The translations under genes and the position numbers were made by a program. A stretch of 64,000 nucleotides of DNA from a virus, in the IMG/VR virus record IMGVR_UViG_3300047409_000248, positions 1 to 64,000 of that record; one strand, 5' to 3'. This document shows, in pieces, positions 2,136 through 35,506 of this stretch; position 1 is the stretch's first letter; the number at the start of each line of letters is the position of its first letter. The notes under the pieces were generated by a model that searched no databases, was not told the origin of the DNA, and saw nothing but the letters and a program-made list of their open reading frames with translations.

Positions 2136-5100
2136 TTGGGAAGCAAGGGCTCCAACACCACCACTACCAATCAGGCACAGACGTATACGCCGAATGCTCA
2201 GGTTGGTCAGGCTGGTTCCCAAGCCATTAGTATGGCCCAATCGGCTGCTTCCCAGCCGTTTAATTTGCCTGTGGCGCCGGTCGCTGGATTTAATCAGGAT
2301 CAGCAACAGGCTTTCCAGCAATACCGTGATCTTCAGGGCCAAGCCCAGCCTTATTACAATCAAGCTCAGGGCTTGCTGCAATCCAGCGCTAACCCGCTGA
2401 CTGCCAACGATATCAATCAATATTACAATCCTATGGCCTCTAACGTGCTGGCAAACCTGCACGAAAGTCAGGGCCAGCAGATGAACGATGTCACTGGCAA
2501 GCTAACCCAGACAGCGGGAGGCGTCGGCGCTAGCCGTATTGCGGTGGGACAGTCTGAGTTGGCCCGCCAGCAGCAATTGGCAGAAGGCCAGACCCTTTCC
2601 GGGCTCTATCAGAACGCTTTGGGTGCAGCGCAACAGAATAAACAGATGCAGGGGAATGCGGCCTATGGTCTGACTAATCTGGGCACTACGGCCCAAGGAG
2701 CGGCCTTGCAGGGTGCGGGCGCCTTATTTGGTGCTGGCCAAACCCAACAGCAGCAGCAGCAGCAACAGCTTAATGCCCCCTATCAGAACCAGTTAGCCCA
2801 GCTAGCCTACCCATTCCAGACCGCGCAATACCTCGCAGGCATCACGGGCGGTCTCTCAGGAGCTATGGGTGGCACGACTACGGGACAGGGACAGACTACA
2901 ACTCCAGCGCCAAGCCTCTTAAGCCAGCTTATAGGCGGCGGCACAGCCGCTGTAGGCGGTCTCGGAGCCTCTGGAGCGTTCGGAAATAATGGCTGGCTTG
3001 GCAACGCCATGGGCACTAACGAAGCCTATGGTAACGGCAATGGCGAGTATGGTGGTTCCAGTTCCAATCCGTTGCCGACACTTTCTCCCTCTGATTATGG
3101 CGCCGGTTTTGCAGCGGGTGGTGCGGCTGGCTCTCCCTTGGGCAATCCGGATTGGATGGGCGCTGACCCAACCGTTCCTCAGGTGGAAGTGCACTCTCAG
3201 GCCAATCCCGGAGCCCATTTAGACCTCAATCCAAAACCTGCTAGCAGCGGTAGCGGTGGACCCAATCCCATGGATATCGCCAAAATGGCGATGATGTTCA
3301 TTAATCGTGGCGGGCGTATTCCATCACGGGCGGAAGGAGGCGCAGTTAATCCTGCCAATCCGTTCCAGCATTTCGCTGACGGCGGCGAACTTGATTTCAA
3401 TGATCGCTTTGCTGGCACTGATGCATTGCCTGATTTCGGCGATCGTTTCGGCGATGCTTCAGGAATGGCTCAGCCGGATAGAGGTACTGCGCTAGCGCAT
3501 TATCTTCGCAGCCCGGAAGCATCTCAAGTGGCGCCGCAGGAACTGGCGCGTAGTCAGGCTGAATTTGCCAATCCAAATCCGGTAGTTAATCCTAACGATC
3601 CTGTCCGAATGCCAGATCAAGCCTCAGTGCAGGCTTGGCGCAATAGCGTCGATAATCCTGCTGGTGCCAATCTTAAGCAGGCTGTCAGCGATGACCCCGG
3701 TTCGCTTCCGCCCAATGCCAAACCGACCCAAGGCCCGCCTCCTATGGCAGCGCCACAGGCTCAGGCTTCTGATTATGCTGCTATGCGTAATCCGGTACCA
3801 TTCCCGGATATCGGCCCCGAACAGGATCAAAGCCGTCAGTTCTCCAAGTCTCCTTGGCTTGCTCTTATCAATGCTGGCGCTGCGATGATGAGCGGCACAA
3901 GTCCGTTTGCTGGCGTCAACATCGGCAAGGGTCTTCAGGCTGGCGTGAAGACACTGGAGGATCAGCGTAAACAGACCACTGAAGAAGCTGGCGTCAATGA
4001 ACGCGCCAAGCAACTGATCCAAGCCGCTGAATTCCATCTTGATCAGTACAACAAGATGACGCCGAAAGAGCAGGCTGACGTTCTGGATCGCAAGGAACAG
4101 CGCAACATCCAGAAGGAGCAGGCCAATCTCAAGGGCTGGGTGGCGGGTGTGGAAAACCCTGTCTCTGGCGAGAAAAGCTGGATCAAGCCGCAAACTGGTG
4201 AAATACGCATCCTCAAAGCTGATGGCACCATTGTATCCGGCAATATTAATGACCCATCCTCATTCCAGAAAACCACCACGACTGATGGAGTGGATAAGGA
4301 AAGCAAGCTCCCCAAGGCAGAACAACCTCCTCCTCCAATGGGCCAGCCAGAATTGGCCAGCGATCTCAAGCCTCCGGATGGTGCAGTAAATACATCCATG
4401 TACCGCCTGAAATCTGCTGCGTTGACTCAGGCCAATGCGGAAATGAAGGCTGTTACTGCTCTTCAAACTAAAGAAGCCACCAATATGGGGGCTCAAAAGC
4501 TGTTGATTGACAATAGTAAGCAAGCTTTCGGCACCCTGATGAAAGACCGCGATCAGGATGGGTTCCTGACCAAGCTGGCAACGATGCGCGGCAACAATAT
4601 CGAAGAGCGTATCCGTTATGCGCGCTCCCTGAATGAAGGATTGGTAGCTTCCGGGAAACCTCCTGCTGTCAATCCGCAAAAGCTGGCCGCGATGGAAGTC
4701 ATCAGCAAGGACCAGAACACGCTGGGTATGCTGTTCGCGTCTAACTTAAGCTCTCGTGAGGCTTTCGCTGGCCAGCAGGTTGGTATTGCCTCTACCCCCG
4801 GATTGACACAAAGCCCGTTGGGCATGTTGAGACTTATAGCTGGTTATGATGCCCAGCATCAGTACACGACTGATAAACACGCTTTCTTTAATAATTATAT
4901 CCAGAAGTATGGCGTTGCTACTGGCTGGCAGCAGGCTTTCGAGAAGCAAAATCCGCCTGAGCGTTACATCGTTCGCTCCATGATGGAGAACTTGCCCAAT
5001 CGGCGCGCTGCCGAGAAGCTTCCTGAAGCTGTTAAAATCCTCCGTGAGAATAAAACCAACCCTGATGTCGTCAAAGGCTTTAACAAAGAATACGGCAATA

Positions 5101-5150: not shown

Positions 5151-7198
5151 TGGCTGACAACCCCATGGATTTCTTCAATTCCCTGAGTGCTCCTCCAGCG
5201 CCAGAAGCCGCTCCTCCTGCTTCTGGTCTTAAGCGCGTGCAAATCACCAAAGATGATCCTGCCAGCTTCTTTCAGGATATCGCAGAACCAGAAGCGCCCA
5301 AGGGAGATCAATATGGCCAACTGGAAACTATTGGGCGCCATGGTTTCCAAGGTCTCACTATGGGCTTCGGCGATGAGATGCGTGGTCTAGCCAAAGCTGG
5401 CGGGGATGAATATGGCGTTCCTACGCCAACCAATATGATCAAGGGTCTAGCCAAGATGGGCTATGAAAGGCTCTTCAGCGATGAACATCCCGCTGCCGAG
5501 ACTTATAAAAAGACCCGAGATGAGGAGAGAAAGGCTCTGGAGGAGTCGCATACTCAACATCCCATTACTTCTACTCTTTCTGATGTTGCTGGCTCTCTGG
5601 CGGTACCGGGCGGCGAATTACTCCAAGCGGGAAAACTTGGCGCCAGAGCTTTGCGCGGCGCGTTGGTATCGGGTGTTCAGGGTGGCATTCGTGGTGCGGG
5701 CGAAGCACCTGAACTAGAAGACGTTCCCAAGAGCACCGCGATGGGAACAGCCATCGGCGCTACGATAGGCGCTCCAGTAAACGCTCTTTTGGGACCTCGT
5801 GGAGCAAATATAAGCCAGCAGGCCCTGAAGCAGGTAGCTGACAGGTACGGCGTCCAACTACCCTACTACATGGTCTCGGACAGCCCCGTCGTGCAGTTCT
5901 ATGGCAAGGGCATGGATCAACTTCCCTTCGTGGGTGGCGCCATCACCAAGGCGGCTGATCGCGCCAAGGAAGGCGTAAAGAATATCCGTGATAAGATCGT
6001 AGAACAGGGAACCGGCGCGCCGGGCGCTACACCTACTGAAGCCAGAACCTTGGCCTCTCAGGCTGCGGAAGCGGCCCGGGATGCCTTTGTGCAGGATGCT
6101 AAGAAGGTATCTGAGAAAAACTACAATGCCGTAACCAACGCGATGAGCAATCCTAACTTCCGCGCGCCGCCCATGAACATGATGACGGAGATCGCGGATC
6201 AGGCTGCCAAATTGCAGCAATATGGCGGTTCTCCCGGTGGGGTTCTCCAGAAGGCTGTTGATGCCGCTCAGGTTCGTGGTGGCTTGACCTATGAAGCTCT
6301 GAAAAACCTCAGGACTGATCTCTACCGTAACTATCGCACCATGGAGGGGCGGGGAGGGATCGATTACGCCGATTACGTAAAGATCATCGGCTCGATCACC
6401 AAGGACATGGAAAACATCATTCATCAAGCTGGCGGTCCAAAGGCTGTGAAACTCTGGGAAAGCGCCAATGCACAGCACGGCATCGGTAAGGATATCGGAA
6501 AGGAATTGGAGACGGCAATTGGCAAAACGGCAAATGCTGCGGACACTTCTCCAGCGGATACAATCTTCCGCAACCTGAGTTCTGTCAGACCTAATATTGG
6601 TGAGGTTAAGACGCTAAAGAACACCATGAAGCCGCAGGAGTGGGAAAAGGTTCAAGCCGCTGCGGTCGCCAAGATGGGTGCCGATGAGGCCGGTAATTTC
6701 AGCATCCAGAAGTTCATCTCAGCCAACAGCAAAATGGCTGATGCCGGACGTGATGTTCTGTTTGGCAAAGCTGGAACCACGTCCCGGGATGCCTATGATG
6801 CTGTGCTCAAATTGGGTTCTGCGGTACAGAATGTGGAGCGTTTCGCTAATCCATCCAGAACGGCTCCGATGATGCTTGGCGCTGGGGCCGCACTACAGGT
6901 ATGGAATGACTGGGGAGAAGGTAAGTATTTCAAACCAGCCGCTGAGCTTGGTACTGGACTGACACTGGCTGCCATTTTGGCGCGTCCAGCAACCGCCCGC
7001 TCAGCCACAGCCTTCTCCAAGGCAATGGATAAATATCTTGGTACTCCTGCAATGTGGACCGCTGGAAAGGTACCAAGGGCAGTAGAAGTTGCGGCTAGGA
7101 ATTTTGCAATTTCATTAGCTAATTCAACTGGTTCTGATAAAAAGAAGATGATCGACTCGTTTGTGGCGGCTACGCCACTCTGGCTACAGGGGCAATAA
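5147..7198 (+). CDS. Ejection/internal virion protein
   Basis: QGLTMGFGDE motif, A/G-rich helical protein, coupled to the previous gene. Confidence 0.65.
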   Translation: MMADNPMDFFNSLSAPPAPEAAPPASGLKRVQITKDDPASFFQDIAEPEAPKGDQYGQLETIGRHGFQGLTMGFGDEMRGLAKAGGDEYGVPTPTNMIKGLAKMGYERLFSDEHPAAETYKKTRDEERKALEESHTQHPITSTLSDVAGSLAVPGGELLQAGKLGARALRGALVSGVQGGIRGAGEAPELEDVPKSTAMGTAIGATIGAPVNALLGPRGANISQQALKQVADRYGVQLPYYMVSDSPVVQFYGKGMDQLPFVGGAITKAADRAKEGVKNIRDKIVEQGTGAPGATPTEARTLASQAAEAARDAFVQDAKKVSEKNYNAVTNAMSNPNFRAPPMNMMTEIADQAAKLQQYGGSPGGVLQKAVDAAQVRGGLTYEALKNLRTDLYRNYRTMEGRGGIDYADYVKIIGSITKDMENIIHQAGGPKAVKLWESANAQHGIGKDIGKELETAIGKTANAADTSPADTIFRNLSSVRPNIGEVKTLKNTMKPQEWEKVQAAAVAKMGADEAGNFSIQKFISANSKMADAGRDVLFGKAGTTSRDAYDAVLKLGSAVQNVERFANPSRTAPMMLGAGAALQVWNDWGEGKYFKPAAELGTGLTLAAILARPATARSATAFSKAMDKYLGTPAMWTAGKVPRAVEVAARNFAISLANSTGSDKKKMIDSFVAATPLWLQGQ

Positions 7199-9019: not shown

Positions 9020-9436
9020 ATGCGGAAAATCATCATAGCTCTGACTTTATCGCTAGCTCTCGCTGGCTGCGTCAAAGGTCCGGGTGGGACCAATATCTTC
9101 CTGCCGACCGCTAGTGTCACCAATCCACTTGGGCCGACCAGCCTCTATGATCTCAAGTCAACCTATGCCATCGCACAGGCTGGCGCTGATCTCTATGTCC
9201 AGCGTTACCGCGATGGCTTCCGATGCACCAAGACGAAGCTGGAAAGCGTATCCAATCTTTGCTCCCGGCGTTCCATTGTCATAAAGATGCAGAATGCTGA
9301 TCGCTCGGCTGGAATTGCCATTGGCAAGGTGGAAGTCTTTATCCGAGATAATCCGACGATTGACGCAAGTTCGTTGCTGTCAGCCGCGCAGTCTGCCGTA
9401 ACAGCCTTTTACCAAATCCAGCAAGGAAACCCATAA
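9020..9436 (+). CDS. Lipoprotein (lysis cassette, possibly spanin-like)
   Basis: Signal peptide with LAGC lipobox. Confidence 0.65.
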   Translation: MRKIIIALTLSLALAGCVKGPGGTNIFLPTASVTNPLGPTSLYDLKSTYAIAQAGADLYVQRYRDGFRCTKTKLESVSNLCSRRSIVIKMQNADRSAGIAIGKVEVFIRDNPTIDASSLLSAAQSAVTAFYQIQQGNP

Positions 9437-25873: not shown

Positions 25874-26377
25874 ATGGGAGTGCTTCGTAACATAGACGAT
25901 GAACGGTTCTGCCAACTGGTAGTCTCAGGCCGCGACCCCGCAGATGCCTATACCGACACTGGAGGGCTGTCCAAGAACCCTAGCTACGCCGCCGATCGCA
26001 AGATGCGAAAGCTGGTCATCCGGAAGCGGCTGGAGGAATTACTCGACGTAGGGGCTCGCAAGGCCATGCTGAGCCGGTCCCAGATACTCCAGAGGATGGT
26101 GGAAGATTGGGATTTGTCTCGAAAGCTAGGTCAAATGGCAGCCGCAGCAACAAATGCAAAATTAATAGGGATGGAGACTCATAAAATGTTCGTTGAACGC
26201 AAGGAGATAGGAGGTGCTGGGGATTTTGATCAAAAAACCGCCACAGAGTTGTTAGAGTTTATCAAACATGAGATTTCAGAGCTTGGCCTTGGCGCTGAAG
26301 AGATCAAACAACTTGGTATAAATATTGAACCCAATGTCACCATCTTGCCTCCATTGAAGAAGACTGGTACGGAATGA
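25874..26377 (+). CDS. terS: Terminase small subunit
   Basis: ERFCQLVVSG....DAY...G.....AADR...IRKRLEEL N-terminal HTH; helical hairpin; KLIG...KMFVER tail. Confidence 0.75.
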   Translation: MGVLRNIDDERFCQLVVSGRDPADAYTDTGGLSKNPSYAADRKMRKLVIRKRLEELLDVGARKAMLSRSQILQRMVEDWDLSRKLGQMAAAATNAKLIGMETHKMFVERKEIGGAGDFDQKTATELLEFIKHEISELGLGAEEIKQLGINIEPNVTILPPLKKTGTE

Positions 26378-26916
26378 AAAAATGCTCATGTTGCCAAATA
26401 CTTAAACAAGAAGATGAATTTTGGAGAGTTCGTAAAGGCCAACCAAAACTACAGAATAAGTGCAAGGCCTGTGGCACAGCCATGACGCGAGAATGGCGCC
26501 GTAAAAATCCAGAACGCAGCGCCGAACTTAGCATGTGGGCCAAGAAAAACCCAGATAAAGTTCGATCCAAGCTTCTCCTGAAGCTTTACGGCCTAACTCC
26601 CGCTGATTGGGATCGAATGTTGGCTGACCAAGATGGCGGCTGCGCCATTTGCGGCGATAATGAGCCAGCCAGAGGGTTCCACGTAGATCATTGTCATAAG
26701 ACTGGGCGCGTCCGTGGCTTGCTCTGCACCAACTGCAATCATGGTATTGGGAACTTTAGTGAGGACCCCAAGACGATCTTGGAAGCGGCCCGCTATGTCA
26801 TGAGGGACCAGCTTATCAAGCTAGATGCGCCGGTTCCAATGGATGATAACCAAGCCGCAGAATTCCTGCGAGATATAGAAGAGGGAAGAGCCATTCCGGT
26901 TGTGAAGAGGAACTAG
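26374..26916 (+). CDS. Endonuclease VII-type HNH
   Basis: YGLT..W..M...Q.G.CAIC...HVDHCHKTGRVRGLLCTNCN.GIG. Confidence 0.9.
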   Translation: MKKCSCCQILKQEDEFWRVRKGQPKLQNKCKACGTAMTREWRRKNPERSAELSMWAKKNPDKVRSKLLLKLYGLTPADWDRMLADQDGGCAICGDNEPARGFHVDHCHKTGRVRGLLCTNCNHGIGNFSEDPKTILEAARYVMRDQLIKLDAPVPMDDNQAAEFLRDIEEGRAIPVVKRN

Positions 26917-27188: not shown

Positions 27189-27553
27189 GATCTTTCCTCC
27201 TCTATTTCATCCATGATGATCTGAGCCAACTCGATATCTTCCTCATCGAATTCTGGCGTCATGAAAGATGACGGCGCAATGATGTGCGGCGCTATGTAAC
27301 TATCCCAGAACGTTGGGGGTATTCCCTCCACTTTTGGTTCTCCAACAGCACCACCATCATAGAGTTCAGTGGCCATGTATTCGTTAATAGCATTTGGGAC
27401 ATTATGCCTAAAGATGAGACCTTTTTTAGTTAGGTGTATGGAAATATACTCAGATGCGCAGCAAAATATTCTTGCATATTCTTCCACGCTTATATCACTC
27501 AGCAAATTCCATACCCTCTTCTCATCATCGAATATTGGATGATAGATGCTCAT
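27185..27553 (-). CDS. Small protein with acidic C-terminal tag
   Basis: AGAGGGAAA SD; ends EFDEEDIELAQIIMDEIEEERS. Confidence 0.7.
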   Translation of the reverse strand: MSIYHPIFDDEKRVWNLLSDISVEEYARIFCCASEYISIHLTKKGLIFRHNVPNAINEYMATELYDGGAVGEPKVEGIPPTFWDSYIAPHIIAPSSFMTPEFDEEDIELAQIIMDEIEEERS

Positions 27554-27577
27554 TGTGTTTCCCTCTTGTTGTCCTAT

Positions 27578-28066
27578 ATGGCCCTTACGATGCCTACAGG
27601 AATCAGAACAGCACCTCCCATTTATGGGAGGAAGATATGCGCCAAGTGTGGCGAAGAAAAGCCTATCGAGGATTTCTATAGAGAAAGAAATCCTTGCCGG
27701 GCTTGCCGCTATAAAGCCTCCAATGCATGGAGATTGAATAATCTAGAAAAAGTAGCGGCTCAAACGCGGGCATGGCACAAGCGTAATCCGGAACGTAGCA
27801 GCGATATGTATCGTCGCCGAAAATATAAAAATTTAGAGTGGGGTGATTTCGACCGGATGCTCAAGGAGCAAGATAGCAAGTGTGCCATTTGCGGTATAAC
27901 CGACCCAATGGGGCGTGGAGGTTTCCACATAGATCATTGCCATAAAACAGAAAAGATACGTGCGATACTTTGTCATAACTGCAACTTGGGAATAGGTAAT
28001 CTCCAGCACGACCCGCGTATTTTGCAGGCCGCGCTGGAGTATTTGTTGAAGCATAGCGACGAATGA
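27578..28066 (+). CDS. Endonuclease VII-type HNH (start uncertain)
   Basis: CAICG...HIDHCHKTEKIRAILCHNCNLGIG. Confidence 0.88.
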   Translation: MALTMPTGIRTAPPIYGRKICAKCGEEKPIEDFYRERNPCRACRYKASNAWRLNNLEKVAAQTRAWHKRNPERSSDMYRRRKYKNLEWGDFDRMLKEQDSKCAICGITDPMGRGGFHIDHCHKTEKIRAILCHNCNLGIGNLQHDPRILQAALEYLLKHSDE

Positions 28067-28068
28067 TT

Positions 28069-29280
28069 TTACTTGTAACTTACTGTCCTGCCATAGGGAG
28101 CTTTGGCGCCAGAGTTGGCCCAGTCTACCCAAACTACGGGAAACTCAGGCTGTGGACCAAAACTGGAGGTCATCATGTCCGTGAGGAAGATGCAGCCGAT
28201 GACATCGGACATCTCACCAACGGTCTTCATAGCGGTATCGAAGTTAGTCCCACCACCACCACCAGCATTCCAGCCCTTCAGGTCTTCTGAGGACTTGGCT
28301 TCCAGTGTGTTCTGGATGCGGGTATCCACAGAGATAAGCGTGACATGGTTGATCAGGTTCTGATCCAGAAGGCTTGCAGCCTCCTCGCACATTTCTTGGA
28401 TCATCTGCTGGCTGACTGAGCCAGAGACATCCAAGCACATGACCAGCTTGAACACCTTGTCATTTCCGTTCCCGGGAAAATATTCATCATTCCCAAGGCG
28501 GCGCCGGTTGGGCCGTGTCCAAACGCGAGTGGTGTTGGACTTGGCATCGCGAGACATATCCCGGATCAGGTCTTTCCAATCGATTTTCTCTTTCGGGAAA
28601 AGGTCTTGGATCAGACGCTGAAGATTACCGGGCATGGTACCGGGCGGGGATTTCTCGATAGCTCCCGCGACGGAATTCTTCCATTGGCGCTCGCCCTGTT
28701 CCTGTTCTTGCTCTGATGTCTCGTCAGAGAACATGGAGCCGGGCTTTTCTTGTTCTCCCTCTTGGCCCTCGCCTTCGCCTTCCCCGTCGCCATCTCCATC
28801 CTCAGGCTGGCCTTGACCCTGACCTTTGCCCTTCTGTTTCTGCTTCTGCTTTTCTTGTTTTTCTTCCTGCTGTTGCAGGAGTTCATAAACAGCCTCAGGT
28901 GATAGTTTGCTGAACTTATCATCCCTCAAAGCATCTTCAGGGAGCTTGAAATAGTCTTCCACGACCTTATTGGCCGGGAAAGAACAGGACTGGTTCCAGC
29001 GCTCCTCCTGACGATAGCGACGGCGGGAAACGTGCAACATCGCGCAATGCAGCACCGTCTTGAGCAGGATACCTTCCAGAAACTTGTCGGCTTCGCCATC
29101 TTCCACGAAATCAGGATTGTAAAAGATATCGATGCCGTTGGTCCAGACGGTTTGATGTTTCTTGCTCTCAATGATGTTTGCACCAAACAGGATTGATGCA
29201 AAGAACGGATTGCGCTTAGCCACGCGTTCCCGCGCTATAAGCATTCGTCGCATTGCAGTTGGTTTCAGAATGTTGAACAT
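28069..29280 (-). CDS. DUF2201-type metallopeptidase-like domain plus VWA domain
   Basis: TNG..IFYNPDF; VWA motifs DVSGS, GGGGTNF, FLTD; start ATG 29280 after AGAGGGAAA. Confidence 0.85.
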   Translation of the reverse strand: MFNILKPTAMRRMLIARERVAKRNPFFASILFGANIIESKKHQTVWTNGIDIFYNPDFVEDGEADKFLEGILLKTVLHCAMLHVSRRRYRQEERWNQSCSFPANKVVEDYFKLPEDALRDDKFSKLSPEAVYELLQQQEEKQEKQKQKQKGKGQGQGQPEDGDGDGEGEGEGQEGEQEKPGSMFSDETSEQEQEQGERQWKNSVAGAIEKSPPGTMPGNLQRLIQDLFPKEKIDWKDLIRDMSRDAKSNTTRVWTRPNRRRLGNDEYFPGNGNDKVFKLVMCLDVSGSVSQQMIQEMCEEAASLLDQNLINHVTLISVDTRIQNTLEAKSSEDLKGWNAGGGGGTNFDTAMKTVGEMSDVIGCIFLTDMMTSSFGPQPEFPVVWVDWANSGAKAPYGRTVSYK

Positions 29281-29348
29281 TGGTTTCCCTCTTTGAGCGA
29301 GATTGCTCAATACTGGAGTGGATTTCACCACTCCAGAGTTTAGCAATC

Positions 29349-30386
29349 TTATTTGCCGCTGCCTTCCAGCAACAACTCCTTGAGTTGCGGGATATTCGCA
29401 AGAGACTTATCCCGGCTCATGGCGTCATGAACGCACATGGAAGCGACATCCGGCAACAGTCTTGCCAGATATTTGGCGAACTGCGCCGCGTTCTTGGCCG
29501 TCATGTTGCGAGCGATGGTGCCGCCCATCAGATACTGAAAGTGAGCATCTGCGGGAAGCTTGGCCTTGACCGGATCAGCTAAGATATCCGCGATCTTCGG
29601 CAGTCCTGCTGCCAAGCGATCAAGGAAACTCTCGAACTGACGGCTAAAACCCTCGCCCAAGATAGCCAGCGCCGCGTTGCCCAGAACCGTTTTCAGGGTT
29701 TTCTGGTCCAGTCCCAGCGCATCACTATCCTTAAGAACCTTATTGAAGTTCTCAAGACTGCGCGGCGTTGGAAATGCAGCATGATTGACATCCACCTTAT
29801 GGACCAACTCAGGACGAAGCTGGAGAAACGCGATCAGGCGCTTGTCCCAGCCCCATTCCTTGGTCTTTTCGATGAAGCCCGGCTCATCTACTTCCACAAG
29901 GATATGCGCCATGCGATTTTCAAGAGGCTTGAGCATCTTGTTATCGCCACCACCATCCTCGCGGGTATTGGAGCCCAGAATGATCCGGTTCTGCTTGGGA
30001 AGCGGATAGCCGCCGCAAGACCGATCCAGAACCAACTGGTAAGTCATCTGCTGAAGCTGGACGCTGGCATGACCGAATTCGTCATAGAACATGACGTGCA
30101 TATTGTCGTCTTCTTCCGGGACGAACGCGGGCCGCGTCCAGTATGTGGCCATCTTCTCGCGGTCAATCAGCGGCATGCCCGTGCCATCCACAATATCCTT
30201 TGTGGAAAGCCTAGTGTCATGCAAACGAGACTGGGGACCAAAATCACTCCTGACCTTGGTCATGATCTCGGTATTGATGACCGCAGACTTGCCGACGCCC
30301 GTTGGTCCCTTGATCATTACCGGAACGTTGGCGTGGATCAGGGGATACGCGACTTCGGCAAGCTTGGTAATTTTGCACTTTAACAT
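29349..30386 (-). CDS. MoxR-like AAA+ ATPase
   Basis: GPTGVGKS, FYDE, PLENRMAH, FPTPRS. Confidence 0.88.
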   Translation of the reverse strand: MLKCKITKLAEVAYPLIHANVPVMIKGPTGVGKSAVINTEIMTKVRSDFGPQSRLHDTRLSTKDIVDGTGMPLIDREKMATYWTRPAFVPEEDDNMHVMFYDEFGHASVQLQQMTYQLVLDRSCGGYPLPKQNRIILGSNTREDGGGDNKMLKPLENRMAHILVEVDEPGFIEKTKEWGWDKRLIAFLQLRPELVHKVDVNHAAFPTPRSLENFNKVLKDSDALGLDQKTLKTVLGNAALAILGEGFSRQFESFLDRLAAGLPKIADILADPVKAKLPADAHFQYLMGGTIARNMTAKNAAQFAKYLARLLPDVASMCVHDAMSRDKSLANIPQLKELLLEGSGK

Positions 30387-30798
30387 CAAGGTTTTCCCTC
30401 TTGTAGAGCAGGATTGCTCAATAATGGGCTGGGATTAGCCAGCCCATAGTTTAGCAAACTGGTATCTTGAGACTTTTAGAGAAGCCATCGAGCTTTACTA
30501 TTAGCTCATTGGCTTCTTTATGATAGCCAGCGCAGAAAGACCACCAATTGATCTCTGCGATGGCTTCCGCAATTACTCGGCGAGTAATCTCTATATCGTC
30601 TTGTTGCGGATCGCCTTGACCATAAGCCATTTAGTGGCCCTCCTCATTTGGAGATTTGTGTAAACGCGTGACTGAAGCAATCAACGCGATTGCCATGCCA
30701 AGCGCATACAGGATGAACAAGATTTCCATATTCCCTCTATCTCGCACTTTCTACAAAGCACGTTTATTGGGCGATTTTATGGCGCCCAATAGACTTAC

Positions 30799-31719
30799 TC
30801 AGAGATCGTATTCTGCTGCTTCTGCAACCATCTCAGACACTTCAAGATCAAGAGTGTCCAATTCCACGACTTTGGCTAGGATATCTTTGCCGCGAATAAT
30901 AGCGTCTTTACGGGAATAGGAACTATCCCGCAATTCACTGGCGGTAAGATGTCCCAATCTTGCAATCGACCGCGCTAGCAGTTTGATGTCTTCACTCTCA
31001 GTAATATTCATATCCCTGAGAAGTTCTGATATCTCCCTGCAATTGTTCACAAGACTATCGCGGATCAGCTTGCCATCGGCTGTTGATTTATAGCTCTCCA
31101 ACCTATCGACAAATATCCCCACGATTTCCTTGGCGCGGTTTACCATGGTCATGGCGGCCTCTTTCAGCCTCGTTTCAATCTCCAGCGACATCTGGCTGGT
31201 CGCTTGCGCTACAGCCTCTTTCGCTATGTCAGCCACGAAATGGCCGGTTGAAGGCATTGGCCAATACGTGAGCTTGAACCGGAACATATCCTTTGCCTTG
31301 TTGGGACTGGGATATTCAGTGCGATCAAACAAATCGCCTAGTTCTCGCTCGCTATCGGCTATCAGTGCAGGATAAACTTGCAAATACTCATCCCATGCCA
31401 AGCGTAATTCGTGCTCAGCATCTGAGATTTTCCTTGTGAATTCATCATGCACCGCGACCGGAAGCAATCTGGTTTTGTCATCGCCCCATGGTAGAGAGTA
31501 TTTGTAAACAATTTCGCGTACCCTCTGCGATGCAGCAACAACGGCTTTGACCTTGGCATGCCTACGGTCGATAAGGAACTTGCTGGCTTTTGCGCGCCGG
31601 TCATGAAGATTGAACTTTCTTTCCACATATCCGGTTGCTGTCTTGTCGCGCCGTTCACCCAGCAATCCGCCATTTATAATGGTCACAGAAACAAGCATTG
31701 CAGATTTGGCTAGGTCCAT
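30799..31719 (-). CDS. DUF3150-like protein (usual partner of phage AAA/VWA pairs)
   Basis: SLPW...RLLP...LGDLFDRTEYPS...RDSLVNN. Confidence 0.7.
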   Translation of the reverse strand: MDLAKSAMLVSVTIINGGLLGERRDKTATGYVERKFNLHDRRAKASKFLIDRRHAKVKAVVAASQRVREIVYKYSLPWGDDKTRLLPVAVHDEFTRKISDAEHELRLAWDEYLQVYPALIADSERELGDLFDRTEYPSPNKAKDMFRFKLTYWPMPSTGHFVADIAKEAVAQATSQMSLEIETRLKEAAMTMVNRAKEIVGIFVDRLESYKSTADGKLIRDSLVNNCREISELLRDMNITESEDIKLLARSIARLGHLTASELRDSSYSRKDAIIRGKDILAKVVELDTLDLEVSEMVAEAAEYDL

Positions 31720-31989
31720 TTGAATGTTTCCCTCTTATAGAACGCTCGTTTGGCGCTCATCACTGAGGCTCTAAAGCCTCAGGACATGAACGTCATTTCT
31801 CAACCATGAGAAAGGTGGCTTTCCCATCCGATATTTGGATTATCCCGAGTTTATCGGGATGATCGAATACTTCAGCGCTATCTGGGTTGATCCAGGTTCG
31901 CTCAAATGCCGTCCAGCTAGCAGCTAGCAATCCTCCGATGAAAGCTAATTCGGCCTCTTTTGTCTCGAAAGACAGTTGATAGGCTATCA

Positions 31990-32388
31990 TCAGTGCAGTG
32001 TCTTGCCGTCTTTGCGCGGAGATTTCTGCACACCACAATCGCAAATATGATCGTGGCATTGGTCCGCTACCATTCCGAAATTATCCTCGCTGATATGGCC
32101 CATTTGCGCGGCCATGATCATGAAAGGTCTGATTGCTTCAATGGGCAATCCGATGGCTTTGCGAATTCGCTTTGCCTTGAAGATGGCATACTTGCCAACC
32201 TTAGTCGGAGCTTCGTCCATCTGCTTGGTTTCAGCGAAAAACGGCATGATAAGAAGATACCGCCAGAAGGTTTCCGCGTTGCTTTCCCATTGCGGGAAAA
32301 ACTCAGCCAGCTTGCGCTTGCTGAAAGTCACACCATTGACCCTGAAGGCCGCCGATGTCTCGTTACATTCGATGCACATGACAGGCAT
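31990..32388 (-). CDS. Hypothetical protein
   Basis: Preceded by a structured element and SD. Confidence 0.65.
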   Translation of the reverse strand: MPVMCIECNETSAAFRVNGVTFSKRKLAEFFPQWESNAETFWRYLLIMPFFAETKQMDEAPTKVGKYAIFKAKRIRKAIGLPIEAIRPFMIMAAQMGHISEDNFGMVADQCHDHICDCGVQKSPRKDGKTLH

Positions 32389-32664
32389 GGTTAAATCTCC
32401 CTCTTGTAGAGCATAATGCTCTATGCTGCGCTACGTGATTTGTACATAGCGCAGTGAAGAACATTAGACATATTCGTGGAATTGCGTTCCGTATTGCTCC
32501 GCGACCTGTTCTTTGGTCAGCGGTGGATTGCGCTTTTCGTGGATCATCTGCTTATAATTGAGCGCATAGTAAGTCACCCAATTAGCTGCATGTGGATATC
32601 CTACCATTTGGAACGGCGTCCTTGGCCGCTTCAGAAGGCGCGATATGGGCGTAGGTTGGCCATT

Positions 32665-32940
32665 TTAATGGCCCTCCTCAAACGTATCCACAAGCTCAAA
32701 ACCGGCCTCATCAAGCTCCATCGTCATATATGTTATGGGCTGGTTGATGGTTTCGGCATAAGCTTTGACGGTTTGATCTGGCGCGCAGAATATTTCATCT
32801 GCCGCTGTTTCCAGCAGTTGTTGATTTTTAATGAACCAACCAGCGCCAGCGATTTCAGCCTCATCGCGGTTTTTGGCTTCCACCTCAATCTCAATTCCGA
32901 TTGCTGCGGAGGCTTCAAAATGCACTTTAAATTTTGGCAT
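32665..32940 (-). CDS. Acidic hypothetical protein
   Basis: Preceded by a structured element and SD. Confidence 0.7.
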   Translation of the reverse strand: MPKFKVHFEASAAIGIEIEVEAKNRDEAEIAGAGWFIKNQQLLETAADEIFCAPDQTVKAYAETINQPITYMTMELDEAGFELVDTFEEGH

Positions 32941-33178
32941 GGTTTTCCCTCTTATTGAGCGTAATGCTCATCACTGAAGCCCGTAAGCTTCAGGACATGA
33001 GCACTAGATAAAACAGGCTATGATAAAGCCTATACTGCCAAAGCCTATTGTAAGGGTCAGGCAGTCAAAGATTGCAGTGCGGAATTCCGCTTCTTCCTGC
33101 GTCATGATATGAGCCATATCATTCCTGCGGCCCAGAGCGCCATATAGACGCCCCAGAACGCAACCAGATATTTGTCAA

Positions 33179-33373
33179 TCATGAGCTAACCCATGATGCG
33201 CCGCAGGCCAGATAGAATTGCTCCGCGTGAAAGTTGGCATTGGTATCGCCAAGCCGGTCAGCGAAAGCCTTTGCGACTTTCTGCTTTTCAGCTTGTTCGA
33301 TGTCCAAGCCATCAATCGTTGCGGCAATCAACTCGAAATGCCGTCGCTGCATTGATGTTTGATGTCTTGCCAT
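33179..33373 (-). CDS. Conserved small phage protein
   Basis: RRHFELIA...FADRL..TNANF...F..AC; start after the element SD. Confidence 0.7.
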   Translation of the reverse strand: MARHQTSMQRRHFELIAATIDGLDIEQAEKQKVAKAFADRLGDTNANFHAEQFYLACGASWVSS

Positions 33374-33440
33374 GGTGTTTTCCCTCTTGAAGCTTAAGCG
33401 CTTCGTGCTGCACCTATTGCTAGGTGCAGTGTCGAAAAGC

Positions 33441-33689
33441 TTATTCTGCGGCTTGCAATTCACGCGTGCTGCGCTTGATGGCAGCCCGAACCGAATTCAA
33501 CGCTCCGAAAACCTTGGATTTAATTTCCTTGTTTCCGATTGCGTTGGCATGCGGCCAAGCGAGTTCAAGCGCAGTCTTTGCAGCGCCGAATTCACCGTTG
33601 CGGATAAGACGCTCTGCGGTAGAAAGATGCAGGGTCAACGTGACTTTGTGACTGTCGCGCTCTGCATCGTTCAATTGCCTTTTTGCCAT
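33441..33689 (-). CDS. Hypothetical protein
   Basis: Flanked by two structured elements. Confidence 0.7.
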   Translation of the reverse strand: MAKRQLNDAERDSHKVTLTLHLSTAERLIRNGEFGAAKTALELAWPHANAIGNKEIKSKVFGALNSVRAAIKRSTRELQAAE

Positions 33690-33750
33690 GGTATTTCCCT
33701 CTTAGAGCGGAATGCTCTATGACGCTCTCCGTAGAGAGCGCTTAGAACAC

Positions 33751-33930
33751 TCAATCAGCGTCGTCAGTCTTGAGCGGGGAAGCGTAGTAATATTGTTCGT
33801 TCTTTGCGTACAGGAACGCTCCGAGCTTGACGACTTTAACGCCGCCGCGCTTAAGCGCCACTTCCATCGTATCGCCTTCAGCCATACGAATAGGAGATTT
33901 AACCGCCCAAACCTTTGCAAATTGTGCCAT
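33751..33930 (-). CDS. Hypothetical 59-aa protein (not in ORF track)
   Basis: MAQFAKVWAVKS...DDAD*; flanked by two structured elements. Confidence 0.65.
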   Translation of the reverse strand: MAQFAKVWAVKSPIRMAEGDTMEVALKRGGVKVVKLGAFLYAKNEQYYYASPLKTDDAD

Positions 33931-34002
33931 GTGTTTTCCCTCTCTTGAAGCAAAATGCTTCGTGCTGGAGAGTGGTTAAGCTCTCCAGTGTCGAAACACT
34001 CG

Positions 34003-34512
34003 CTAAAGACAAGCGCCAGCTTTGATCCGGAAGCGAGCGGAACTAAATCCGCCAGATACAGGGTCAGTGATTACCAGTTGACCGTCCTGGCGAAGCATCC
34101 AATTTCCGCTGTGCAAATCGCCGCTAAGATTGTTACGGCGAAGTTCAGCGACATATTCAACGATATCCGTTGCTTCGCATTGGCCGCGATTAAAGATATT
34201 ATTGAAGACACGCGCTTGTGCTGTTCTAGCACCATGTTCGTATTTGAGTTCACTCATGGTGCAGATAAGGCGTTCCATGATAGCCACGTAAAACTCATCA
34301 TGGAATTTCAGGCTGTAGACCTTGGGAGCGAATTTCCCAGCGTGGCCGTTATTCGTGGCCCATTGGATATAGGAAGGCCATTCGTCCAGTTCCCCAACCT
34401 TAATCACCTTATCGAAGGCGTTAGGAATGGAGTAAACCTTGGAATAAAGGCCGCTCCCTATCTGGAGACATCCAAGCTCTGCCAGTCTTGCCTGATATTC
34501 GCGTTGGTTCAT
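34003..34512 (-). CDS. Ser/Thr protein kinase, T7 gp0.7-like minimal kinase
   Basis: IGSGLYSKVY glycine loop, VIK, APKVY, MERL, DLHSGNWM catalytic loop, ITDP. Confidence 0.82.
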   Translation of the reverse strand: MNQREYQARLAELGCLQIGSGLYSKVYSIPNAFDKVIKVGELDEWPSYIQWATNNGHAGKFAPKVYSLKFHDEFYVAIMERLICTMSELKYEHGARTAQARVFNNIFNRGQCEATDIVEYVAELRRNNLSGDLHSGNWMLRQDGQLVITDPVSGGFSSARFRIKAGACL

Positions 34513-34600
34513 GGTGGTTTCCCTCTCTATGGCAGTTGAAAATTGCCTAACCGGCTAGACTAAACGCCTAGCCGAAATAATGTGCTGAGGTATTCTAATA

Positions 34601-34816
34601 CTAAGCTCCGATACGCCATATGTCAGAAGTGACATTATGGTGGTCGATTGCGCCGCATGATTTAAGCCCGGCTTTCACCGGGATACGAAAATCGTTTGGC
34701 CTTGTTTTCCATGTCTGAGTTTTGCCATTGCGGCGGCATTTCCAATAGTTCCCGTTGCCCATACGGGCATAAAGCGAACCATTGTCCAATGCCGTTTCAA
34801 GTGCTTCCTTTGTCAT
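34601..34816 (-). CDS. Conserved small phage protein
   Basis: RRNGKTQTWKTRPNDFRIPVKAGL motif. Confidence 0.75.
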   Translation of the reverse strand: MTKEALETALDNGSLYARMGNGNYWKCRRNGKTQTWKTRPNDFRIPVKAGLKSCGAIDHHNVTSDIWRIGA

Positions 34817-35506
34817 GGTATGTAATCCCTCTTTCGGCTAAATTGCCTAATAGCTAAAGAGGCTTAGCAGGGTAGGAAGTCGGAAAATGAATTCCGGCTA
34901 ACCACACTGCCAAGCCTCTAAAGCCAAAAAGCCAGCTTTCTAGGGCTAGCTGGTAGTAGAGAGAAAAGGGTATGGAACAGCTTGTTACGGCTGTTCCCCA
35001 TGTTGCCAAGTGCAATGCTTGGTATCATCCCCCCATGCCAACCTGCTCAATGAGACTTACGGCGCGATCCGGGGATAGGTAGCTTATGACGACCAGACGA
35101 TGCTGGCGCTACTGTCCCGCCTTGCTAGGCAATGGAAAGAGGAGTTTTAGGCGTTCTAGCCCGATTTTTATCCCCGCCATGGTTACTCTCGCTCCGCTAC
35201 ACGGGAACGCTATGCCCCTATCGCGTAAGCTACCCTAGCCATAGTCCAGAAAGGGAAATTGCTCGCAAGTATTGCCTAATGAGGGCTGGATCGCTGGAGG
35301 TTGTCTGTCCCTCCTTGGACGGCATATGGCGCTTGCTACGCCTGCCGGGACTAGGGCCTAATCGACCTAGTGGCTGAATGCGCTCTATCAAATCTCCATC
35401 TCGTTAACCTGAGATAAAGATACGCCTTTGTAGCAATCCAGTTAGTGGGTTAGACGCATGGCTGGTATGCGCTGAGATCATAACGCTTGCTAAGTGTAGC
35501 TAATCA

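Follow-up and report, generated by a model that had tools for sequence, protein, structure and literature searches.

The stretch of DNA analysed here (the window) comprises bases 1-64000 of IMGVR_UViG_3300047409_000248, a complete 74,179-bp virus record of IMG/VR from soil, for which megablast and blastn searches with the region found no close relative among GenBank phages. A minus-strand operon starts at about 34.9 kb and reads leftward through small open reading frames (ORFs) of unknown function, then through a conserved trio of genes and, further along, through ERF and YqaJ recombination genes, and the ribosome-binding site AGAGGGAAA is found in front of nearly all of its genes. Its position and the presence of a T7 gp0.7-like kinase gene suggest that this is an early operon. 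Here, we describe an RNA element that is repeated between the genes of this operon, can fold in two mutually exclusive ways and is also found in phages and prophages with which the window shares no other genes.

Results

Eight copies of an intercistronic element

A covariance model (R1) was built from 37 aligned copies, taken from the window and from four relatives fetched via the ATPase of the trio. Run over the 64-kb window with filters off, R1 found exactly eight copies, all of them on the minus strand between 29284 and 34008 (Table 1), with scores of 35-73 bits and E values of 4e-8 to 6e-19; the antisense strand gave at most 17 bits and nothing besides the eight copies was found at E<1. 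The model therefore recovers, on one strand, the eight intergenic regions that the first-pass annotation had described as sharing one architecture, and the sequences of all eight agree with the order of parts that it gave. Each copy is about 70 nt long and lies between a stop codon and the next AGAGGGA ribosome-binding site. The upstream stop codon is followed by a 5' arm, a 3-nt bulge, an upper hairpin of 8-11 bp (mostly CUG...CAG), a 2-nt bulge and a mid arm, which in the eight copies reads CGAAGCA, UAGAGCA or AUGAGCA; after the mid arm come a short loop, a 3' arm (GCUUC or GCUCU/A), AGAGGGA and ATG. In 8/8 copies, as had been noted, the stop codon of the upstream ORF is at or within the 5' arm; its distance from the start of the element is 4-14 nt.

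Table 1. Position of the element copies and of other features. Coordinates refer to the window unless preceded by the name of a related contig (L003 to L006); bits and E values are those of the R1 model.
Feature	Position	Strand	Description
Canonical element 1	33935..34008	minus	Between kinase gene and 59-aa ORF; 72.7 bits, E 6e-19
Element 1, 5' part	stop TAG 34005-34003; 5' arm 34001-33992; internal loop ACA 33991-33989	minus	
Element 1, central part	upper stem and loop 33988-33965; internal loop CA 33964-33963	minus	
Element 1, 3' part	mid arm CGAAGCAUUU 33962-33953; 3' arm GCUUC 33951-33947; AGAGGG 33943-33938; ATG 33930	minus	
Canonical element 2	33694..33759	minus	UAGAGC/GCUCUA type; before 82-aa ORF; 35.1 bits, E 4e-8
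Canonical element 3	33379..33449	minus	CGAAGC/GCUUC type; before 64-aa ORF; 62.5 bits
Canonical element 4	32944..33013	minus	AUGAGC/GCUCA type; before 91-aa ORF; 62.2 bits
Canonical element 5	32396..32473	minus	UAGAGC/GCUCUA type; before 132-aa ORF; 50.4 bits
Canonical element 6	31727..31802	minus	Before conserved 306-aa gene; 53.6 bits; orthologous copy in L003
Canonical element 7	30393..30464	minus	Before AAA ATPase gene; 50.9 bits
Canonical element 8	29284..29357	minus	Between ATPase and DUF2201/VWA genes; 47.6 bits
One-state last copies	L003:10810-10873; L004:10604-10667; L005:10940-11005; L006:11406-11453		
Type-2 junction, operon head	34817..34926	minus	Long irregular hairpin, UUAGGCAAUUUAGCC as small hairpin, ribosome-binding site; no R1 match
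Type-2 junction before kinase gene	34513..34597	minus	Hairpin, GUUAGGCAAUUUU...UGCC, ribosome-binding site
Type-2 junctions in relatives	L003:3255-3351; L005:2740-2828; L006:3855-3947; L006:4205-4295		
Two consecutive hairpins after 306-aa gene	30730..30797	minus	No lower stem; same position conserved in L003
Kinase gene, operon gene 2	34003..34512	minus	169 aa; T7 gp0.7-like serine/threonine kinase, kinase domain only
Conserved trio	28069..31719	minus	306-aa protein, AAA ATPase and DUF2201 metallopeptidase/VWA protein; punctuated by elements
306-aa protein gene	30799-31719	minus	Unknown function; conserved
AAA ATPase gene	29349-30386	minus	Nearest GenBank relatives include N4 gp24-like proteins, ~27% identity
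DUF2201 metallopeptidase/VWA protein gene	28069-29280	minus	Trio member

Two pairings covary

Pairing was examined in an alignment of 104 rows, 102 of them distinct, which was fitted to R1 and leans towards the model, hence the use of shuffled and slid partners as controls. The long helix, formed by the 5' arm with the mid arm (lower stem) and by the upper hairpin, showed 93.8% pairing, compared with 66.9% for shuffled and 34-46% for slid partners, and changes on both sides of a pair were found at 8/8 pairs of the upper stem and 7/10 of the lower stem. The pairing extends to the stop codon, which covaries with its partner (UAA/UUA, UGA/CCA and UAAGC/GCUUA; pair 9-104 is AU 56 times and GC 43 times). 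The alternative hairpin, in which the mid arm pairs with the 3' arm, covaries in step (pair 97-141: GC 66, UA 10, AU 4; pair 98-140: AU 66, GC 20). Among the 14 copies that have no aligned 3' arm, 9 form the alternative hairpin in another register with compensations of their own (GAAAC/GUUUU, GGAAC/GUUCC), and in element 6 this hairpin is a longer variant. It had been proposed that the 3' strand of the lower stem, our mid arm, has a choice of an upstream or a downstream partner, and covariation is seen for both; the 102 distinct copies likewise support mutually exclusive pairings in minus-strand RNA, with compensatory changes and G-U pairs.

Ten pairs in the lower stem and mostly 8-10 in the upper stem add up to an interrupted helix of about 20 bp, or about two turns. 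The mean folding energy of the long helix is -25.7 kcal/mol, with -14.7 in the upper hairpin and about -11 in the lower stem, and in constrained ensembles the long helix was favoured over the upper and alternative hairpins by just 3.6 +/- 2.7 kcal/mol. GUUUC, a conserved part of the 5' arm, is single-stranded in the alternative state only. The internal loop between the two stems is 3x2 and its sequence varies (ACA/CA, GUC/UG, GC/UG, GAA/CG, CCU/CA). The loop bases that flank the two helices could pair in only 3 and 1 of the 102 copies, compared with 22.6 +/- 2.8 and 5.7 +/- 1.7 copies expected with shuffled partners, a deficit which argues that the loop is selected to stay unpaired. The register of the stop codon is also constrained, as it begins 3 or 4 nt ahead of the 5' arm core in 68/102 copies and within -16 to +4 in 91/102, and the next start codon mostly lies 25-35 nt past the mid arm.

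Two properties distinguish the strands. A U.G wobble at pair 14-100 (U14.G100) is kept in 88/102 copies, and the four-base loops (n=49) include 20 UNCG and 12 GNRA loops, where about 0.8 and 1.5 are expected. This conserved wobble and the strong excess of UNCG and GNRA loops show that the element acts as RNA of the sense strand; we take it to be a cis-acting structured RNA of the polycistronic transcript of the operon.

A covariance model with searches of Rfam and phage genomes had been suggested as a check; these were run, covariation is present, no Rfam family matches and further carriers were found. Rfam 15, ribozymes and CRISPR direct repeats included, gave no match at gathering score in the window. 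At E<=1 its sole match was a sub-threshold one of mir-449 (33.9 bits compared with a gathering score of 60.4, E 7e-5) to the leader hairpin at 34851-34926 on the minus strand, which precedes the first ORF and contains UGGCAGUGU; this likeness is almost certainly a chance resemblance of a long hairpin. Mimicry of a CRISPR repeat or an RNA anti-CRISPR, for which an antisense hairpin followed by ...GAAAC was considered, found no Rfam CRISPR direct-repeat match and is also disfavoured by the lower-stem covariation and the sense-strand loops. A scan for intrinsic terminators and attenuators listed no copy, the upper hairpin being followed by CA and the mid arm with no U-run, and no promoter-like or terminator-like site coincides with any copy. 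Literature searches on RNase III and phage intercistronic stem-loops, and with the core motif strings, turned up no description of the element.

Distribution among phages and prophages

In the four relatives R1 found 9-13 copies each, always on one strand and within one block of 5-8 kb. In each of them the cluster closes with a copy that has no 3' arm and whose ribosome-binding site directly follows the mid arm, leaving one state only (Table 1). In three copies of L004, near 3790-3856, 5790-5854 and 9300-9370, the ribosome-binding site is separated from the alternative hairpin by an additional hairpin with a T-run, and these extra hairpins may be added terminators.

A blastn search with one copy (E<=10) returned only chance matches of 18-31 nt. 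IMG/VR was scanned with an 18-base pattern, for which about 40 chance matches are estimated, and only contigs confirmed by R1 were counted. About 16 contigs carry the element, that is, the four relatives and some 12 further IMG/VR contigs; their GC content ranges from 42 to 70% and most hold several copies. A scan of reference genomes added Bradyrhizobium elkanii WSM2783, Bradyrhizobium sp. SRL28 and one Bradyrhizobium metagenome-assembled genome. In the two isolates, whose whole genomes of 9.7-9.9 Mb were searched, the copies lie in a prophage cluster, with one weak match elsewhere (E 0.003, on another contig). The WSM2783 prophage is on contig 47 at about 28.6-31.8 kb, and another Bradyrhizobium prophage copy is at L058:7177-7246 (minus strand). 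Among sequencing runs, those listed as containing the phage were of soil DNA, one of them a possible source of the record, and no RNA run was among them. Judging from these prophages, the hosts of the phages are likely alphaproteobacteria of the Bradyrhizobium type.

Four otherwise unrelated carriers were compared: the phage of the window (G000), a 43-kb phage with terminal repeats (G007), a 61.5-kb phage (G008) and a Bradyrhizobium prophage (G005). No protein family of at least 70 aa was common to all four, a comparison that leaves room for shorter or very divergent proteins. Since the element is found in phages that share no other genes, it seems to have spread horizontally.

Other genes and features of the operon

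The three divergent copies that the first-pass annotation had placed at 30730-30797, 34513-34597 and 34817-34925 do not belong to the same element, as none has an R1 match at E<=10. The latter two represent a second and simpler type of junction, made of a hairpin, GUUAG, a small covarying hairpin and the ribosome-binding site. In all relatives the operon opens with one or two type-2 junctions, which have a variable hairpin, an invariant GUUAG and no lower stem. Their small hairpin has an AUUU loop, covaries among relatives (GGC/GCC, GUCC/GGAC, GACC/GGUC) and is followed by the ribosome-binding site.

The second gene of the operon codes for a 169-aa protein that matches T7 gp0.7 residues 66-216 in BLASTP (E 2e-9, 29% identity over 157 aa), with the motifs VIKVG, DxHSGN and ITDP aligned between the two. 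It also matches phrog_15752 (E 1e-17), annotated with positive regulation of RNase III and negative regulation of RNase E, and phrog_2828 (E 1e-12); Pfam gave no match. By these similarities the protein is a member of the T7 gp0.7 kinase family, and it is possible that it modulates RNase III and RNase E of the host. No homologue was found in nine other carriers (the four close relatives and G005-G009) or in the other loci fetched. The kinase is absent from every other carrier examined; therefore, we consider it an accessory gene rather than a part of the mechanism, and an obligatory partnership with the element was ruled out.

The 306-aa protein, the ATPase and the VWA protein are kept together in 9-10 of the element-bearing contigs and are absent from the others. 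None of the three was found in G005-G009, so the trio was ruled out as a trans-acting partner of the element. The small early genes between the copies are mosaic, and most ORFs of the window have no counterpart in the relatives, whose ATPases are 63-82% identical. An N4-like origin, considered because the ATPase resembles N4 gp24, was rejected since no ORF for a giant virion RNA polymerase is present (the largest ORF has 1012 aa). A PF14622 profile found no RNase III gene in five genomes, those of the phage and its relatives, and detected the positive controls; a PF00940 profile, used for the question of a phage-encoded RNA polymerase, gave no match and left its positive controls undetected as well.

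Several other observations were made around the operon. Two paralogous ORFs on the plus strand (26374-26916 and 27434-28066) lie within the minus-strand operon and have a homologue of 33% identity in the unrelated phage G007; they may be mobile endonuclease-type genes. A 17-nt box, AAGCATTGCACTTGGCA, is identical at 35004-35020 of the window (minus strand) and at 3204-3220 of L003; in both phages it stands in a non-coding stretch upstream of the operon, is followed by a GC-rich hairpin and may be a promoter or a regulatory site. A terminator-like hairpin with a T-run at 34930-34951 (minus strand) is directly upstream of the leader hairpin of the operon, and in L003 tandem, iteron-like repeats of the GCGTTAC type lie upstream of the operon at about 1890-1960.

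Discussion

Our results establish a repeated intercistronic element of defined strand, with two covarying pairings, a maintained internal loop, a constrained stop-codon register and a distribution that extends over unrelated phages. The most likely explanation, which we put forward tentatively and stopping just short of calling it probable, is that the element works as an intercistronic RNase III processing signal of the T7 type and that refolding of its 3' arm yields a 5'-terminal hairpin; the cut, the identity of the enzyme and the protective effect are what we infer. According to this proposal, the nascent element in the polycistronic early transcript would fold into the interrupted helix of about 20 bp, with the upstream stop codon in a lower stem of about 10 bp, the unpaired 3x2 loop and an upper hairpin of 8-10 bp that is often capped by UNCG or GNRA. 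RNase III of the host would then make a nick in the internal loop, on its 3' side, as at the early sites of T7, and the upper hairpin would stay on the upstream cistron as an exonuclease-resistant 3' end. The released mid arm (GAAGC/GAGC) would pair with the downstream 3' arm (GCUUC/GCUC) and help displace the 5' arm, so that the downstream cistron would gain a hairpin 1-3 nt from its new 5'-monophosphate end and a few bases ahead of its ribosome-binding site. This hairpin would shield the cistron from 5'-end-dependent decay, which 5'-terminal hairpins are known to hinder. With a notional cut on the 3' side of the loop, the alternative hairpin starts at most 3 nt from the new 5' end in 92/101 copies.

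What is known of RNase III is consistent with such a role. Its idealised substrate has 22 bp and is symmetric about the cut, internal loops confine its cleavage to one strand, the resulting 3' hairpins stabilise RNA, and the T7 early precursor has five of its signals (PMC3867540). RNase III of S. meliloti, an alphaproteobacterium, cuts the T7 R1.1 site, which has a 4/5 internal loop, at the canonical position (PMC6121014). T7 infection is described as raising RNase III activity via a phage-encoded kinase (PMC4858673), and both T7 and the phage of the window have a gp0.7-type kinase gene in the operon concerned. Folded here, the T7 sites R0.3 to R1.3 proved to have a central internal loop between a lower stem and an upper stem of 9-12 bp; the lower stem contains the stop codon at R0.5, and at the R1 site the stop codon immediately precedes it. 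Like the element, the T7 sites R0.3, R0.5, R1, R1.1 and R1.3 are repeated intercistronic hairpins of a polycistronic early transcript made by the host RNA polymerase. In both, the upper stem measures 8-12 bp and the internal loop is asymmetric, the lower stem extends to the stop codon of the upstream gene, the core next to the loop is conserved, and the next ribosome-binding site follows closely (PMC3867540; PMC6121014). The differences are that the loop is 3x2 here and 4x5 in T7 R1.1, that the lower stem of the element is longer and better paired, and that its 3' strand has a second covarying partner downstream, which gives the two-state design. The element, for which cleavage is presumed, also has likely hosts among the alphaproteobacteria and is spread over unrelated types of phage. 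The sequences compared point to an analogy of design rather than common descent.

No protein family is common to the four unrelated carriers, and for this reason the trans-acting factor is probably encoded by the host; a host enzyme rather than a phage one is also favoured by the absence of an RNase III gene from the phage and its relatives. A role for RNase III fits every feature tested, namely the geometry, the T7 layout, the hairpin at the 5' end, the absence of a common phage protein and the kinase gene, and we regard it as partly supported. However, several points weigh against it. The core UGUUUCG...CGAAGCA and the U.G wobble are strongly conserved in genomes of 42-70% GC, but RNase III shows little sequence specificity; this conservation may come from the triple pairing constraint, but a sequence-specific factor could also account for it. 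The upper stem has only 7-8 bp in 49/101 copies, which is short for a half-site. The T7 sites have no sequence homology to the element, the best R1 match in T7 being one of 6.7 bits elsewhere, and the kinase is no obligatory partner, given its absence from the other carriers sampled. Finally, the stop codon keeps a fixed register, which hints that the terminating ribosome plays a part, and RNase III processing needs no such part.

This last point is central to a different explanation, a ribosome-driven coupling switch that works with no cleavage at all: the terminating ribosome would melt the 5' arm, the mid arm would flip to the 3' arm and initiation at the next gene would change. Such a switch would account for a stop codon that keeps its distance from the 5' arm and covaries with its partner, and for two states that are only about 3.6 kcal/mol apart; furthermore, the freed 3' arm (CUUC/CUCU) can pair weakly with GAGG or AGAG of the ribosome-binding site. 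However, this site is not clearly sequestered, with a probability of being paired of 0.62 in the long helix, 0.53 in the alternative state and 0.58 with a shuffled linker, and T7 RNase III sites overlap stop codons too. The switch also leaves unexplained the maintained internal loop and the very stable, tetraloop-capped upper hairpin, and we consider it unlikely, though it is the strongest of the competing explanations. A separate role of the 3' arm as an anti-ribosome-binding site was rejected, the effect being too small.

It is also conceivable, if rather improbable, that the element stabilises the RNA or marks it for processing by some other nuclease of the host, RNase E for example; the long helix would hide the U-rich 5' arm (GUUUC) and the hairpins would block exonucleases and 5'-end sensing with no involvement of RNase III. 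Every cistron is flanked by stable hairpins, GUUUC is unpaired solely in the alternative state, the carriers lack a common phage protein and RNase E is a further annotated target of gp0.7-type kinases (phrog_15752). But protection alone requires neither a two-turn coaxial helix with a selected internal loop nor a three-way covariation.

The strong conservation of the core and of the U.G wobble, beyond what pairing needs, could instead reflect an operator for a phage RNA-binding protein, for example a RegA-like repressor of early translation that binds the core or the small hairpin by the ribosome-binding site. The element stands ahead of most early genes and the type-2 junctions retain a small hairpin beside the ribosome-binding site, as such a repressor would suggest. 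We give this explanation only a small chance, because the four unrelated carriers share no protein family of at least 70 aa (smaller or very divergent ones could have escaped the comparison) and the trio is absent from G005-G009. Little can be said, too, for a DNA-level junction for the shuffling of gene cassettes, similar to T4 PeSL (early promoter and terminator stem-loop) or attC sites, with an incidental RNA fold. The first-pass annotation had listed cassette recombination sites and a self-cleaving motif as alternatives, and both fared poorly. The early genes between copies are indeed mosaic and phages with no other genes in common carry the element, but the U.G wobble and the UNCG/GNRA loops mark it as sense-strand RNA, the antisense strand scores at most 17 bits, conservation between copies is limited to blocks of about 10 nt, no recombinase is common to the carriers, and the copies have no promoter or U-tract terminator, unlike PeSL (PMC2839356). 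A small self-cleaving ribozyme that separates the cistrons is very improbable: the element is repeated, conserved and independent of phage proteins, and several classes of ribozyme occur near phage genes, but its only conserved unpaired bases form a 3x2 loop of variable sequence and no Rfam ribozyme matched at E<=1.

Other known systems resemble the element in part. In the early RNA of Bacillus phage SP82, Bs-RNase III cuts and the downstream 5' end is protected beside a polypurine ribosome-binding sequence, for which the counterpart here is AGAGGGAAA. There, protection comes from ribosome binding in a Gram-positive host, with no refolded hairpin, and we know of no description of bistable pairing in SP82. 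In E. coli, 5' hairpins of the ompA type, at most about 2 nt from the end, block 5'-end-dependent attack by RNase E, and 3' hairpins block exonucleases; these hairpins and the intercistronic hairpins of Rhodobacter puf are single and static, and are not formed by the refolding of a processing site. Integron attC sites are, like the element, imperfect hairpins at the 3' end of a cassette or gene, but they are folds of bottom-strand single-stranded DNA that depend on the integron integrase, in contrast to the sense-RNA signature and the lack of a common recombinase observed here. The T4-type PeSL combine an early promoter with a terminator stem-loop and are substrates of DNA recombination (PMC2839356, PMC4122927). 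Like PeSL, the element is a composite motif found repeatedly on the flanks of small, variable early genes of a mosaic region; it differs in having no promoter or U-tract and in being conserved at the RNA level.

A further and more speculative possibility, in our view an unlikely one, joins cleavage to translation. The element would be a bistable punctuation RNA, moved horizontally among unrelated phages of alphaproteobacteria, in which the lower stem, with its stop codon, is contested by RNase III and the ribosome that terminates there. Translation of the upstream gene would keep the uncut alternative state; once translation stops, the long helix would re-form and be cut, and the downstream cistron would receive its protected 5' hairpin. 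If this is true, the cutting and stability of each early mRNA would be set by the translation of its neighbour.

From the searches made here, the element appears to be an undescribed RNA family with the design of a phage intercistronic processing signal to which a conserved second state is added. It is unusual in its clean three-way covariation, in the stop codon that is built into the helix and in its selected internal loop. The R1 model can be used to annotate the early operons of such phages, and the element is a compact natural part that could insulate or stabilise cistrons in synthetic operons of alphaproteobacteria. RNase III punctuation of early mRNA has T7 as its textbook case and has hardly been explored beyond phages of enterobacteria and Bacillus. 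An inducible prophage in a cultured Bradyrhizobium elkanii strain would offer a tractable system for the coupling of translation, RNase III cleavage and RNA refolding.

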